IMG/VR virus record: IMGVR_UViG_3300036820_000006
Span: 1 to 64,000 of that record
DNA from: a virus
Reading direction: 5' to 3' (one strand)
DNA length: 64,000 nt
Part shown: piece by piece, positions 42,120 through 52,693 of the stretch
Layout of the letters: every line of letters starts with the position of its first letter
How positions within the stretch are numbered: position 1 is the stretch's first letter
Notes under the pieces: model-generated
What the model was told of the DNA's origin: nothing
The model's input: only the letters and a program-made list of their open reading frames with translations
The model's database searches: none
Translations under genes and position numbers: made by a program

Positions 42120-42704
42120 ATGAAACAACTCACGCTCACGCTCAAGCCTAAGTCCAAGCTCGACCGCAGGTGCTTCCTCAAACTCACAGGCACGGCTGCG
42201 GCAATCACTGTGATACCTAGCTCGCTGCTGCTCTCTGGCTGCAATTCCGAATCCATCGTGCAGGGCCTCAACATCGTGCTTCAGTCGGCCGAAGGCATTC
42301 TCAACGTGCTTGCGCCCGGTGATCCATGGGCTGCGGATTTCCAGCAAGCGGTAGCCGCGCTGCAGCAGGCCGAGGCGGCATGGCAAGGCGGCGGCGCGAT
42401 CAACATTATCGTGTCGGCGCTGAACACGCTGGAAGCGGTCACTGCTGTGGTTCCGTTCACCGCGCCTTATTCTGCATTGATCGACATTCTCGTGGCTGGA
42501 ATTGAATCAGTGCTGCTGCTGATTCAGAACCAGAATCCATCAGTGTCGGTCGCAGCGGCCGCGACTGCGCACCCGAATCCGCACGAGGGCAAATATCATC
42601 TGGGCAGGCCACATGCATTTCAGACCCCGGTGGGCGTTTACCGCAAGGCATGGAATGATGCCGTGAAAGCGAACCCCGTGCTGGCGGCGGCTAAGCTGCA
42701 GTAG
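42120..42704 (+). CDS. Tat-signal lipoprotein (spanin candidate)
   Basis: DRRCFLK twin-arginine motif and LSG|C lipobox. Confidence 0.7.
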   Translation: MKQLTLTLKPKSKLDRRCFLKLTGTAAAITVIPSSLLLSGCNSESIVQGLNIVLQSAEGILNVLAPGDPWAADFQQAVAALQQAEAAWQGGGAINIIVSALNTLEAVTAVVPFTAPYSALIDILVAGIESVLLLIQNQNPSVSVAAAATAHPNPHEGKYHLGRPHAFQTPVGVYRKAWNDAVKANPVLAAAKLQ

Positions 42705-42764
42705 GAGCTAGGAGCTGGGAGCTAGGAGCTGGGAGCTGGGAGCTGGGAGCTAGGAGCTGGGAGC
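42702..42764 (+). repeat. 9 tandem TRGGAGC heptamers
   Basis: Counted directly; fills the intergenic gap up to 5 nt before ATG 42770. Confidence 0.95.
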
Positions 42765-42769
42765 TGGCT

Positions 42770-47693: not shown

Positions 47694-48053
47694 TCACCTT
47701 CTTTCCCGATGAGACTTTCTGGCGTTCAAGTGTTGCGCGCAGAAATCGCGACGGGATGCGAAGATGAACGAATCCGTCCTTGAAAGAGTTGTGACCCACC
47801 TCGGTCGGCAGTCCATGCGTGCGCACAACACCTTCATGCCGAGCCTGCCCGCTGCCAGCGTGAGCGCGTTCTTGATGCTCATGGGCGGAATGAAAACTTC
47901 CTTGGTCTGAGGATCATAATGCAAATGCTCACGCCATGTGCGCTTGCGATAAGCATCGTAAGATTCTTGGTCTTCCTTTTCGGTTTCGTGGTAACGAGAC
48001 TGCGAATAAGGTGATACTCCTTCAAGCTCGACGGTTGCGATGCGAACGGACAT
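47694..48053 (-). pseudogene. RAMP/Cas7-like protein, truncated after about 75 codons
   Basis: VELEGVSPYSQSR and VFIPPMSIKNAL match RAMP beta1 and helix motifs; no C-terminal Gly-rich loop; sequence after LGMKV (~47828) reads better in another frame. Confidence 0.6.
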
Positions 48054-48090
48054 TGAAATTCTCCCTTGGATTTGAGTTTGAGTTATGAAA

Positions 48091-48270
48091 ACGTTACGTT
48101 ACATTACATCAAGCAGCGCGAAGTTGAGACACGATGCAGCACGCAGCAGAACGTTACAGGACGCAACGTAGCGCTGCACTGTGATGCCCCATGACGCGTT
48201 GCGAAACGACGCCCAACAGCACAGAATGCTGCGACATGCGGCGTTACGTAGCGACACGGAACGTTACGCA
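48091..48270 (-). ncRNA. 5-nt-period CGY-NN array 1 (36 units), putative guide RNA
   Basis: On + strand 19/36 units start RCG and the other 17 differ at one position; register unbroken. Confidence 0.8.
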
Positions 48271-48284
48271 ATCTCTAGCAAGCT

Positions 48285-48791
48285 TTACTCTTGAATGGCC
48301 TTGGACCCGAAAAGTTTCAGTGTCTCATCCATCGGCAGTGGACGAGTACGATTGCCAACCGCATCAGCGATCACCTTCTGCGTGCGCTCAGTAGCGCCCT
48401 TCTGGATGAACTGCAGAATCGTCAGCGAGGTATTGTGTTGCAGCTTTGACTGTGCGCTGAGCGAGTCGTAATCGACTGCCTGCAACCGGCGCGATGCACG
48501 CTTGGCTGCCTTGCTGAGCTTGCGCAAGTCCGCAGTGCTTAGACTGGGAACTTCTTCATTGGGCACTAGCCGTACGCCTCGGCCCCAGTCCACCACAAAC
48601 ACCATGCCTTGTTCACTGAGCAGCTTATTAGTTGATGTGGTAAGGACGTTGCGTCGATGCCGCACATCACACCCACACAGGGCGTTCAGCTCGGTATACG
48701 TTACGGTCTCTCCCGGTTTGGCCTCGGCAAGCCGACGCAGAGCGATAGTAGTCTCAACCGCGAGATTACCCTTGATTGGAATATACGGCAT
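48285..48791 (-). CDS. winged-helix-like protein between arrays
   Basis: AAGGGAG RBS; PGETVTYTELNALCG...GRGVRL. Confidence 0.7.
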   Translation of the reverse strand: MPYIPIKGNLAVETTIALRRLAEAKPGETVTYTELNALCGCDVRHRRNVLTTSTNKLLSEQGMVFVVDWGRGVRLVPNEEVPSLSTADLRKLSKAAKRASRRLQAVDYDSLSAQSKLQHNTSLTILQFIQKGATERTQKVIADAVGNRTRPLPMDETLKLFGSKAIQE

Positions 48792-48821
48792 TCAGAATCT
48801 CCCTTTCTGATGATGCCAGTA

Positions 48822-48921
48822 ACAGTTCGGTACGGTACGTCACGTGACATGAAGGTGCGTTACGGGACATCACCTCACGGGACGGGACGATGCGGCGCGT
48901 AACAAAAAGATATGCAACATT
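48822..48921 (-). ncRNA. 5-nt-period CGY-NN array 2 (20 units)
   Basis: 10/20 RCG, rest one mismatch; begins just downstream of a - strand promoter. Confidence 0.75.
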
Positions 48922-48934
48922 CACGCCATCTACC

Positions 48935-48964
48935 GTTATACACATATAGCCACGAATCTGTCAA
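48935..48964 (-). promoter_or_regulatory. promoter TTGACA-N18-TATAAC
   Basis: TGTCAA 48959-48964 and GTTATA 48935-48940 on +; 9-bp inverted repeat overlaps it. Confidence 0.75.
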
Positions 48965-48991: not shown

Positions 48992-51900
48992 CTAAAATTT
49001 GACCTCCTGCAGCTCCGCCATGTTCGGCCCGCAGGCACATTCAATGCCCACTACCAGACCCTCTGGAGCGAGCTGTGGATGCACCAGCACATTACTCGGC
49101 CTACCGAACACGTCGCTGATATCATGCAACATCTGCGCACGCAAGCCTACTGGATAACAGAGCAGAATGCTGTCGTGAATCGTGTTGCACAGGCCGTAGC
49201 GCTCAGCCAACCCTTCACGATCTAGCGCTTTCAACCGCTCACGCAGGTCGCCGTGCGCCTCGCTCTGCACTCTGAATGCCATGGCGGCGTTGAACTGCTC
49301 GCCAGGTTTCCAGCTGCCTTTACCATCGGGCACGTAGACCTCGTAAAACCATCGCAACATTCCGTAGCGGTTCTTTAGCATGCCCTGCCGGTGCGCCTCT
49401 TCGCACACGTTGCGCTGCCATACGAACACCTTTGGGAACAGACGCTCAATAACAGTGCGGAACTCTCTAGCCTGCTTCAATGAGGCGAAATGTTCACGGT
49501 TCATTTCGTAAAGATGTGGCGGCATCAACCCCAACGCAATGCCAAGAATACTCGGCTTGGCCTGCCGGTCACGCACGGCTTTATAACGCTCATTGGACCT
49601 GAACCAGCGAAAGCGATCCATCAGCTCGTCGTCAGGTAGCGCGAACAGCTTATCCGCATCCGGCAGGCGCAGAAAGTTCCACGCCACAAAGCTGTGCATG
49701 TCCAGCCGTGCCATACGGCAGTTATGTGACAAGAATCCCTCCGCGATAAATGTTTTAGTACTCGTACCTAGTGCCACGACAGGATGATTTCCTATAGACT
49801 CAATTTTCAAAATCTTGGCGTCATGCGCAAGTTTTCCAAACACGTTCATGCCTTCTAGCCTAGACAAGCACTTAGGTAATAATCGCTTTGGTCTAAATTG
49901 CCCCAGCGCACGTATACCCGCGAATGGCTGCCCCACAAACCTAAATGTACGGCAATCTCGTTGGGGATTGTTAGCACTGTCCCCAAGGCTATAACCATAT
50001 TTAGCTAACATACTTGCTACCGAGTCCGCGATAATCCCAGGTCTCTGTGCGAAACTTAGCTGGCACCCATTACTAAGGGACCCCTCCCCATCCAAAATTC
50101 CGGCAATATATCCTTGATCCCATAGATCAGCACTCTTCCATGGCGGGGTAAACGTGCTCAAGTACATACCCGTAGCTAATTCATCAGCCCTGCGCCAGCT
50201 TACTCGTTGCTTAGTATCAAACTTAGCTAGCCATGTGTGTTCTATGCTGCATGTAACAACGCCTTGGTCAGTGGTAATGCGCACACACGGACGTTCAATA
50301 TAATCCACGGACTCAATTACGGATTTACGTAGCTTGCGTTTGCCCTCTATCGGAAACTCATCGAATCCCCAAAGTACCTCTCCCTCTCGCAGGTCTATGG
50401 CACGTCTCCATTGCAGGTCGGCCGTCAGAATACGAGTATCTGGGGCCACACAATAAGACTCATCTTCAGCTAAGAACCCTGTAATAAGGACATGATAACT
50501 TTTCAAATCCCAGTTCGCCAGCTCATACCCCGCTGGCGCTTCGATCATACTTTTTATAGCCTTACCCAACTTACCGTGGGCAGGGTAAGTTTGCGTAGAT
50601 GGATTGCGCGCACTTAGCTGTCCAGTCGCGGGCGCGAAGGTAAAAGTGGTGTGTACTCGGCCGTCGGCGTGCGGTTTGAACCCGTCAACATAAGTGCTCG
50701 ACATCTTTCCCATCTCACGGCATTCAATCACCTTCGTATAAAAGTCATCCTTGTGCCTAACTGCGAGACGTTCTAGCTCTTTTTTGTTGGTGGTGTCACT
50801 GCCTTTCTTGCGATCTTTGGGAATCTTATGCCCACGCACCCGCATATAATTCATCAGTTGCGGCGATGAGTTTGGTGAGAATTCATACACACGGCACCAG
50901 CGTGCAACCCCGGCAGTCTGTGTGCCAAGCTGCTCATCAAATACCTGCTGGCCAAACTGGCGCACATCAAAATAGAAGCGCTCACCCGGTTCCTCGACGC
51001 CATCTTCATCCGTGGTCGGCGGGTCCTCGAACATGCGCGCGCGGATCACCGCTATCTCGTCGGCAGTTACATTGCTATAACGATTAAGGTAAGCATTCTT
51101 GGCGGACTCGGTTAGCGCTTTCTTTGTCTGCTTGCCTTCCACCACCGGAATCCGAGTCGGCGTGATCTCTTCTAGCAGCTCTTTGACGCGAGGGGGCACT
51201 CCGGCATAACCATCCTTCGGCGTGATCTTTCTGGCGTCGGCGGGGAACCTGGCATCCAGCTCTAGCAGCAGCTCCGCACGCGTAGCATCAAACTGCGCGC
51301 CTAGCGCCAGCCTACGCTCATTATTAATCGGCAGGCCCCGCTGCTCCATTTTGGCTAGAATTGGCCGCACTGCTTCGACTTGGTTCTCATAGCCGACAGC
51401 GGCGCGCGCAGGCTGCGGGTCATACCATATCCCGCGATCTACCATAGTGCGGTACGAGACTGAATGAATACGCTGTGTCGCGTCCACGTCTACGCAGCCG
51501 TAGAACTCCAGATTGGTGCCGTTCAAATGCTTCCAGGGGAACGGGAACTGCGCATAGCTAGCAGCGAACTGCAGATGCGCGGGCAAATCCGGCTGCATAA
51601 AGTGGAACTGTTGTAAGGTATCGTGTACCGGCCCGGCAAGTTCGAGATAGGTGGCATTGCCGAAATCGCGCTGGCCGACCGCGCGCAGAACTTTCAAATC
51701 GAATAAATTGTAATTATGCCCCAGCTTCGGCAGCGGCAGTTTCAGCAGCCATCTTGTCGCTTGAATAAAAGGCTGCTTCCACGGCATCGCAATAGCTTGG
51801 CCTGGCGCGACGCTGAACTGACTTAGCCTAATCTGCGTATCGGTGAATCCATCCGTTGCGTCTTCATCTAGCGATGCCGATTCAAAAGTTTCGATATCGT

Positions 51901-52693
51901 GTGCCAGCGCGGTTAGTACGTGCTCAGCGGTACCGGGAATGCTGGCCAGCCACGCATCTGAACGCGCTTTTACATCGCGGCAGAAATCGTCCAACTGAAT
52001 AAGTGTTGGATGCAAGGTGTAATTTAGGTGGTTCTGTTGCAGCCACGCTGCTACTGCTTCAGCATCGTTATCCTGCAGCATGTCCAGAATAAAACTTTTA
52101 TCTTTACCGTAACGCACGTTGACCGCGCGTTGAATATCTCGCGCCAGCACGCCGGTGAGATGAATCGCGCCTCGGCGCAGGAAACTAGGATGATATGTAG
52201 GCACCACCAGAAGTTCGCAGCCTGCTGCTTCGCAGAACTCTGGCAGCGCGCGAAACACATAACCGCGCATATGGCTAATAGTGCGCTTTTCGCCCGAGAT
52301 GCCCGTCAAAGTGCGGAACGGAATGCCGCCAAGCGCCACTACAGTGCGCGGCTTGAACTTGCGAAAGAATTCCAATAGATTAGGCTGGCACTGATTGATG
52401 ACGGAGAACTCATAGTTAGTTCCAGCTAGCGCGTTCCCAAATGGTCTGCAGCGCAACGTATTCGAGATTGCGAACTGGTCGCGGGAGAATCCCAGCCGAC
52501 GCAGCGTGCGCTCTAAGACAGCTCCAGCTGGTGCGTATTTGACAAAAGGAGTTAGTTCACGCGCCTCGTTTTCTCCGCTGGCCTCGCCAATGAGAGCAAC
52601 GCCTAAGCTGCAGCTTCCTTCTGGCTGGGAGAAGTCAGTGCCAGCATTGTATAGATAGCAATTTCTACAGCTATCTGGCTTACTCCTGACCAC
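48992..52693 (-). CDS. family A DNA polymerase with N-terminal family-4 UDG-like domain and intein
   Basis: UDG: IGEASGENE, NTLRCRP, TYHPS; exo: HDIET, GHN..FDL, YGCVD; pol: ATGQLSARNP, DLKSYH, AKPSILG, IHDS. Confidence 0.9.
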   Translation of the reverse strand: MVRSKPDSCRNCYLYNAGTDFSQPEGSCSLGVALIGEASGENEARELTPFVKYAPAGAVLERTLRRLGFSRDQFAISNTLRCRPFGNALAGTNYEFSVINQCQPNLLEFFRKFKPRTVVALGGIPFRTLTGISGEKRTISHMRGYVFRALPEFCEAAGCELLVVPTYHPSFLRRGAIHLTGVLARDIQRAVNVRYGKDKSFILDMLQDNDAEAVAAWLQQNHLNYTLHPTLIQLDDFCRDVKARSDAWLASIPGTAEHVLTALAHDIETFESASLDEDATDGFTDTQIRLSQFSVAPGQAIAMPWKQPFIQATRWLLKLPLPKLGHNYNLFDLKVLRAVGQRDFGNATYLELAGPVHDTLQQFHFMQPDLPAHLQFAASYAQFPFPWKHLNGTNLEFYGCVDVDATQRIHSVSYRTMVDRGIWYDPQPARAAVGYENQVEAVRPILAKMEQRGLPINNERRLALGAQFDATRAELLLELDARFPADARKITPKDGYAGVPPRVKELLEEITPTRIPVVEGKQTKKALTESAKNAYLNRYSNVTADEIAVIRARMFEDPPTTDEDGVEEPGERFYFDVRQFGQQVFDEQLGTQTAGVARWCRVYEFSPNSSPQLMNYMRVRGHKIPKDRKKGSDTTNKKELERLAVRHKDDFYTKVIECREMGKMSSTYVDGFKPHADGRVHTTFTFAPATGQLSARNPSTQTYPAHGKLGKAIKSMIEAPAGYELANWDLKSYHVLITGFLAEDESYCVAPDTRILTADLQWRRAIDLREGEVLWGFDEFPIEGKRKLRKSVIESVDYIERPCVRITTDQGVVTCSIEHTWLAKFDTKQRVSWRRADELATGMYLSTFTPPWKSADLWDQGYIAGILDGEGSLSNGCQLSFAQRPGIIADSVASMLAKYGYSLGDSANNPQRDCRTFRFVGQPFAGIRALGQFRPKRLLPKCLSRLEGMNVFGKLAHDAKILKIESIGNHPVVALGTSTKTFIAEGFLSHNCRMARLDMHSFVAWNFLRLPDADKLFALPDDELMDRFRWFRSNERYKAVRDRQAKPSILGIALGLMPPHLYEMNREHFASLKQAREFRTVIERLFPKVFVWQRNVCEEAHRQGMLKNRYGMLRWFYEVYVPDGKGSWKPGEQFNAAMAFRVQSEAHGDLRERLKALDREGLAERYGLCNTIHDSILLCYPVGLRAQMLHDISDVFGRPSNVLVHPQLAPEGLVVGIECACGPNMAELQEVKF
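49721..50452 (-). mobile_element. intein (244 aa) with LAGLIDADG motif
   Basis: CVAPDTRIL...FIAEGFLSHN|C; YIAGILDGEG; lower GC. Confidence 0.9.

Follow-up and report, generated by a model that had tools for sequence, protein, structure and literature searches.

The locus considered here lies in a complete virus record of 99,275 bp with terminal repeats (IMG/VR record IMGVR_UViG_3300036820_000006), of which the first 64 kb, referred to below as the window, were analyzed as one stretch of 64,000 nucleotides. The sequencing runs that contain this phage are all soil metagenomes, and INPHARED contains no phage that is similar to it at the DNA level. Within the window, the minus strand carries a cassette that consists, in order, of a possible promoter, an array of pentamer repeats (array 2), a gene resembling the vap accessory genes, a second and longer array (array 1), and the remnant of a vipr gene. 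This cassette is a VIPR locus. In VIPR silencing systems, which were described in 2026, a small Cas7-like protein termed Vipr polymerizes on vrRNAs made of GGY/NN pentamers, and the NN dinucleotides pair with double-stranded DNA in such a way that every third base of the target, usually the wobble base, is skipped (bioRxiv 10.64898/2026.04.26.720920). The natural targets of these systems are found in competing phages and are often regulators of the lysis-lysogeny switch (bioRxiv 10.64898/2026.04.26.720920). The published description also includes related repeat consensuses, such as YNNNG. The features of the locus and the further arrays of the phage are collected in Table 1.

Table 1. Features of the VIPR locus and of the additional arrays (positions are those of the window unless marked as genome positions)
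Feature	Position	Strand	Remark
Possible promoter, TTGACA (48964->48959), 18-nt spacer, TATAAC (48940->48935)	48935..48964	-	Read from sequence
Array 2, 17 clear NN+CGY units (48901->48817) and about 4 weaker units upstream	48817..48921	-	Upstream of the vap-like gene
Accessory gene (vap-like, ORF168), 168 aa, N-terminal winged helix and helical domain	48285..48791	-	
Array 1, first guide (units 1-15)	48196..48270	-	
Array 1, likely junction between guides, in phase, degenerate triplets, units 16-18 (GT-CAT, GG-GGC, AT-CAC)	48181..48195	-	
Array 1, guide 2, variable part (units 19-32)	48111..48180	-	Match profile bounded exactly by these units
Constant 3' vrRNA end, units 33-36 (GA-TGT, AA-TGT, AA-CGT, AA-CGT), then TTT 48090-48088	48091..48110	-	
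vipr remnant, first 74-75 codons (beta-1, helix-1) of the Cas7-like family	47829..48053	-	
Unrelated 45-codon tail of ORF119, replacing the thumb and G-loop half of Vipr	47694..47828	-	
Array 4, 22 phased units, stopping just before a ribosome-binding site	genome 68646-68537	-	Outside the window
Array 3, 24 phased NN+CGY units, then a GC-rich hairpin and T run (terminator-like)	genome 84386-84505	+	

Array 1 comprises 36 NN+CGY units that run from 48270 to 48091 on the minus strand, which is the coding strand of all genes flanking the array, and their phase is unbroken throughout. Read on the plus strand, positions 48111-48180 resolve into 14 phased pentamers, each composed of a purine-rich triplet and then two free bases: aag-ca, gcg-cg, aag-tt, gag-ac, acg-at, gca-gc, acg-ca, gca-ga, acg-tt, aca-gg, acg-ca, acg-ta, gcg-ct, and gca-ct. 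A preliminary description of this DNA had listed the 14 plus-strand dinucleotides as ca cg tt ac at gc ca ga tt gg ca ta ct ct, and this list is exactly right. The 14 pentamers are units 19-32 of the array, and in RNA sense their dinucleotides read AG AG TA TG CC AA TC TG GC AT GT AA CG TG. Judging from their degenerate triplets, units 16-18 look like a junction between two guides. The last units of the array have counterparts in related loci, whose arrays share the end pattern AA-xGY AA-xGY AA-xG followed by a run of T. No pseudoknot-like tail was seen at the arrays, and Rfam gave no match; the clade shares a short constant end.

Within the 64-kb window, phased triplets at a stringency of at least 10 out of 12 occur at just two places, which are arrays 1 and 2. 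Array 3 lies outside the window, 36 kb from the vipr stump. Taken together, the four arrays of the phage contain 99 units in perfect 5-nt phase. Their triplets have C in 77%, G in 84%, and Y in 98% of units, and the two NN positions have values of 1.84 and 1.97 bits. Many units of array 4 share the dinucleotide AT, which results in a low information content for this array. The arrays are located in the 5' leaders of genes, near ribosome-binding sites. A weaker tract of nine units was also observed at genome positions 65779-65828. A 217-aa protein encoded near array 4 was considered as a second, divergent RAMP protein; it gave no RAMP signal and a poor Atlas model.

The gene downstream of array 1, ORF119 (47694-48053, minus strand), is the N-terminus of a family of 187-191 aa proteins. 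Nineteen homologues were found, 17 of which are 187-195 aa long, and the closest intact homologues are on contigs of 101 kb and 69 kb. A search of JGI metagenome contigs with the Vipr N-terminus returned only relatives at 58% identity or less. The family is encoded at 55 IMG/VR loci, and phased pentamer arrays accompany it at 51 of them, flanking the gene in the loci that were read. A structural model of the family (pLDDT 85) matches Cas7/Csm3 subunits with an E value of 5e-8. The family profile also matches the deposited SUSP1 Vipr chain 36pp_D (E 5e-6) and a protein of Pseudomonas phage LESphi2 (98% hhalign probability). LESphi2 (vB_Pae_LESphi2, OQ594955.1) is a cultured phage of P. aeruginosa, and its 194-aa Vipr homologue is annotated as hypothetical; three GGC-NN arrays with structured tails lie upstream of this gene, which is found about 1.2 kb downstream of cI in the same direction. 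In the phage studied here, arrays with a conserved triplet and hypervariable NN, namely arrays 1 and 2, adjoin the vipr remnant directly. Of Vipr itself, which in its full form is a minimal RAMP with an RRM core, a thumb, and a glycine-rich loop, the locus encodes residues 1-74 only.

The homology of ORF119 to the vipr family ends after residue 74, at position 47829. Neither the half of the protein that carries the thumb and G-loop (GLGRFRP..GFYGRF) nor a second copy of vipr was found in the 99-kb genome by tblastn or by a family HMM in six frames. A frameshifted but complete vipr was considered and ruled out, as the C-terminal half is present in no frame. The truncation reflects sequence that was truly deleted or replaced, with 47828/47829 as the breakpoint, because a 23.8-kb contig from the probable source soil run crosses this point with zero differences, and because the contig of a relative from a second soil run matches down to 47829 and then diverges into codons for QGKGQKTYAQ, which is intact family sequence. 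In this relative, whose contigs cover 47968-48350, array 1 is nearly identical but is shorter by two units on either side, and 20 nt are inserted after 48267. The guide formed by units 19-32 has one change, GG to TG at 48159; this change comes from a single contig with a depth of 3. It has been reported that substitutions in the thumb (R138) and in the G-loop (D177) abolish silencing (bioRxiv 10.64898/2026.04.26.720927). By analogy, the vipr stump cannot serve as a working effector, because the thumb and G-loop residues that the structural preprint finds to be essential belong to the missing half. Both soil runs, including the probable source, also contain short, low-depth contigs (at 47868-47900) with a more distant vipr homologue (..CLSEAAKFLS..), and other VIPR-bearing phages therefore co-occur with this phage.

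The accessory gene between the two arrays is intact, and at 23 of the 55 related loci a homologue of its product, ORF168, is encoded next to vipr; JGI metagenome contigs contained no relatives of ORF168. The predicted structure of ORF168 (pLDDT 86) has weak fold matches only, of the wHTH/GntR type, with a best E value of 0.012, and all of these matches are DNA-binding regulators. On the basis of this model, ORF168 fits a vap-type accessory protein with a DNA-interaction fold, such as accompanies Vipr in the published systems. Pfam searches with ORF119, ORF168, and ten proteins encoded near the arrays gave sub-threshold matches at most. Upstream of array 2, the TTGACA/TATAAC pair is a possible promoter. 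A consensus scan for promoters and terminators called no promoter; the pair was left uncalled because the scan accepts only -10 hexamers whose sixth base is T.

The second guide of array 1 can be decoded. Its dinucleotides are antisense to the first two positions of codons for [QH]RFT[IM]AHE[FL]GHYLL when one base is skipped after each pair. The preliminary description had proposed that the dinucleotides, read as codon positions 1 and 2, spell [QH]R[FL]T[IM]A[HQ][DE][FL]G[HQ]YLL, the HEXXH core of ImmA/IrrE metallopeptidases, and had suggested a gapped pattern search with which this could be checked. Such a search was run, and the decoding was borne out by in-frame matches in Peptidase_M78 genes. 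For the 10-unit core, in which one base is skipped after each pair across the codons of RFTIAHELGH, IMG/VR yields more than 107 exact matches, a number that is a lower bound. The same core read backward has no match in IMG/VR, nor does the core with a 2-nt skip, and exact matches are likewise lacking for 10-unit cores taken from three further guides, namely units 1-15 of array 1, array 2, and array 3. The ImmA spelling is not due to chance, because more than 107 core matches stand against none in the backward, 2-nt-skip, and other-guide controls.

In IMG/VR, the exact 14-unit pattern has no match, and the best viral sites agree with the guide at 27 of 28 letters. In a set of 185,579 species genomes, four sites match all 14 units exactly (28/28), and they are found in unrelated taxa: Aurantimonas manganoxydans, a Proteobacteria MAG, a Fibrobacterota MAG, and the cyanobacterium Pantanalinema. 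Ten of 401 Alphaproteobacteria genomes contain a site with at most three mismatches, while the backward control yields none. Every match is in frame and skips the third position of each codon, and the ORFs read R[QKE]RFTIAHE[FL]GHY. The exact and near-exact in-frame gapped matches are confined to Peptidase_M78 genes. Four target proteins were searched against Pfam, and all are Peptidase_M78 (PF06114) proteins with E values from 2.5e-22 to 4.4e-19, in which the sites cover the HEXXH motif. In addition, the match ends exactly at the edges of units 19-32, and neither units 16-18 nor units 33-36 match the targets. Read together, these observations make it very probable that this stretch of array 1 is a VIPR-type guide, the sequence of which has been shaped by selection to pair with the HEXXH codons of immA.

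It could be argued that the pentamer tract is instead an RNA leader to which a protein binds, or a DNA iteron, and that its agreement with ImmA is accidental. The position of the arrays in 5' leaders near ribosome-binding sites is what would be expected of such an element. However, this explanation is extremely improbable given the empty controls, the four exact 28-letter gapped matches, and the presence of such arrays beside the Vipr family at 51 of 55 loci. A TRAP-like RNA-binding site, which would likewise have a 5-nt period, was dropped as a candidate in view of the link to the Vipr family and the code match.

The noncontiguous code with its skip on the wobble position is thus seen at this locus, in silico, for one guide. 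It had been predicted that recognition would ignore wobble positions, and this holds in silico: the skipped base is the wobble position, and third bases vary freely among the core matches. The 110 core matches listed comprise 85 different 41-nt sequences and 16 protein clusters, and almost every skipped position shows each of the four bases. On this comparison of sequences, changes at the wobble base would give no escape. It was also expected that several paralogues could be hit by the same guide. To count as a natural target by the published criterion, a site must agree with the guide at 80% or more of the NN letters (bioRxiv 10.64898/2026.04.26.720920). Among 30 M78 loci sampled from 61 Alphaproteobacteria, seven match at 23 or more of 28 letters, whereas the backward control never exceeds 19, which is in agreement, in silico, with this expectation. 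The guide is placed on the most constrained codons of the protein family, where a synonymous change would offer no escape and where substitutions at the bases that pair would in most cases affect the catalytic motif. The wobble-skipping code itself is an already published property of VIPR and not a new principle.

ImmA is the anti-repressor protease that prophages and other mobile elements need for waking, and the ImmR-ImmA module is found in ICEBs1 and in many prophages. At the two target loci where the neighboring genes were checked, the matched gene lies on another mobile element, directly behind an XRE-type HTH (HTH_3) gene with a slight overlap; this order of XRE and M78 genes is the ImmR-ImmA arrangement. 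The targets resemble the classic module in their HEXXH M78 domain and, where neighbors were checked, in the position behind the XRE HTH repressor gene. They differ from it in that the best-matching targets belong to a proteobacterial subfamily of about 300 aa with an extra C-terminal domain. This is the dominant target family, and its copies on proteobacterial plasmids are annotated as ImmA/IrrE metallo-endopeptidases, often beside an HTH regulator. An anti-repressor role for the best-matching targets is suggested by their family and gene order.

Peptidases of the M78 family also regulate other processes, and the guide might be aimed at regulators of host anti-phage defense or stress (CapP-type or IrrE-type), in which case silencing would blunt immunity. 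The matched catalytic motif is common to the whole subfamily, as the seven of 30 M78 loci that pass 23/28 illustrate, and members of the best-matching family of about 300 aa are not limited to viral contigs but are also encoded by plasmids and chromosomes. Nevertheless, this purpose appears unlikely. The two target genes that were checked are translationally coupled to an XRE HTH gene, no defense genes lie beside these two loci, and most core matches come from viral contigs, which fits the published preference for lysis-lysogeny regulators. ImmR-ImmA modules are favored over defense regulators as targets because of the gene order at the two annotated loci.

The preliminary description had seen no ImmA-type gene in the window and had placed the target in the host or in a competing element. 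The observation extends to the entire phage, which has neither an M78 gene nor a self-target, and the target must therefore be located elsewhere. The ImmA-core guide is present in none of the 55 related VIPR loci, and no guide of the phage matches a vipr locus. The other guides (array 1 units 1-15 and arrays 2, 3, and 4) gave nothing above the shuffle background in ImmA-bearing loci, VIPR loci, and the phage's own genome. Array 1 units 1-15 and arrays 2 and 3 also have no match with three or fewer mismatches in the four genomes that contain perfect ImmA sites.

A mechanism can be proposed by extension from the published systems. A minus-strand transcript would begin upstream of array 2 and run across both the vap-like gene and array 1. 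In the RNP that would then form, one Vipr protomer would occupy each CGY triplet and present the two bases that follow. The 14 presented dinucleotides could then pair with double-stranded DNA, with two bases read and one skipped, and the binding site would be the sense strand of the codons for Q-R-F-T-I-A-H-E-[FL]-G-H-Y-L-L in genes of ImmA/IrrE-type metallopeptidases. Binding would presumably act as a roadblock to transcription of immA, and the resident element would then be unable to cleave its repressor or to wake up while the phage grows. Since the wobble base is skipped and the catalytic motif is what is read, one guide could cover many variants, and escape would be costly. In the present genome, vipr is truncated, and the guide built for immA would therefore need Vipr in trans, from a co-infecting relative, or it would be a recent relic.

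The last of these possibilities is less likely than not, but it deserves appreciable weight, somewhat more than the use of a Vipr supplied in trans. The cassette may have been inactivated when the 3' half of vipr was deleted, so that the arrays are unused and have simply not yet decayed. The cut at 47828/47829, the absence of the missing half from the genome, the published requirement for thumb and G-loop residues in silencing, and the failure to find targets for the other guides are all consistent with a dead locus. On the other hand, the 99 units keep their perfect 5-nt phase with Y at the third triplet position in 98%, and the vap-like gene is intact. Moreover, VIPR-null phages that keep working solo guides have been documented (bioRxiv 10.64898/2026.10.15.759431).

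These phages offer a model for the alternative, in which the guides and the vap-like gene are kept so that the guides load onto the Vipr of co-infecting or resident relatives and redirect the effector of a rival to immA. Solo vrRNAs are known from phages that lack vipr and are active from satellites (bioRxiv 10.64898/2026.10.15.759431). A second vipr homologue, present as low-depth fragments in these soil runs, would be a potential source of such an effector, and the arrays have remained intact despite the truncated vipr. Like the solo vrRNAs of VIPR-null phages and satellites, the arrays described here are guide arrays without a working Vipr. [quoted passage not shown] Here, in contrast, a vipr stump and the vap-like gene remain, vipr loci are matched by none of the guides, and the one guide that could be decoded is directed at immA. 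The phage is without a Vipr of functional length, yet it retains a 74-codon stump that a tblastn-based caller would still score. With these differences, a strategy of this kind is possible but doubtful for the present phage. A broader form of the same idea is rather improbable: the Vipr-less phage would keep its four or more intact arrays and accessory gene so as to exploit Vipr made by co-infecting relatives, and its family-wide ImmA guide could lock the induction switch of about a quarter of ImmA-type genes at once (7/30, in the alphaproteobacterial sample), in a wide range of unrelated prophages, ICEs, and plasmids.

Among the described systems, the locus is closest to the type II VIPR of Escherichia phage SUSP1 and of the Pseudomonas fulva prophage clade, which consists of Vipr, vap1, and vrRNAs (bioRxiv 10.64898/2026.04.26.720920 and 10.64898/2026.04.26.720927). 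Both have a phage-borne family of small Cas7-like proteins, and the profile of the family found here is similar to SUSP1 Vipr. In both, pentamers with a fixed triplet and free NN lie upstream and downstream of genes, and an accessory gene of the DNA-binding type is present. Both also share the one-base skip on the wobble position, targets that are lysis-lysogeny regulators of other elements, and the lack of self-targets. The differences are distinct as well. The triplet here is CGY (C 77%) rather than GGY, and the arrays end in a short run of AA units and Ts without a SUSP1-like pseudoknot tail. In addition, array 1 joins two guides in 36 uninterrupted units, further arrays are found 20 and 36 kb away, and vipr is truncated. 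A more distant likeness exists to the Cas7 backbone of Class 1 CRISPR systems, with which Vipr shares the RAMP fold, the use of one protomer per guide repeat unit, and a thumb that periodically breaks the duplex of guide and target. Unlike Class 1 CRISPR, the locus has neither a repeat-spacer array nor adaptation genes, its period is 5 nt and not 6 nt, and recognition of double-stranded DNA is gapped.

The VIPR system has already been published together with its code and its preference for lysis-lysogeny regulators, and the locus is a clean natural example of this logic. What is new is a clade with CGY-type repeats and a minimal 3' end, together with an intermediate state in which vipr is reduced to a stump. 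The locus also adds the ImmA anti-repressor protease as a class of target. A genome in which vipr is truncated, and in which the vap-like gene and the guides are intact, bears on the origin of VIPR-null phages with solo guides.

Two further features of the window were observed. A 1233-aa DNA polymerase is encoded at 48992-52693 on the minus strand, in which an N-terminal domain of the UDG superfamily is fused to a family A polymerase. Residues 747-997 of this protein resemble, at 36% identity, a segment that is annotated as "terminase" in many mycobacteriophages, and they may be an inserted intein or homing element. Finally, nine tandem GGAGCTG heptamers (91% matches) are found at 42704-42767, between two plus-strand ORFs near the end of the structural module.
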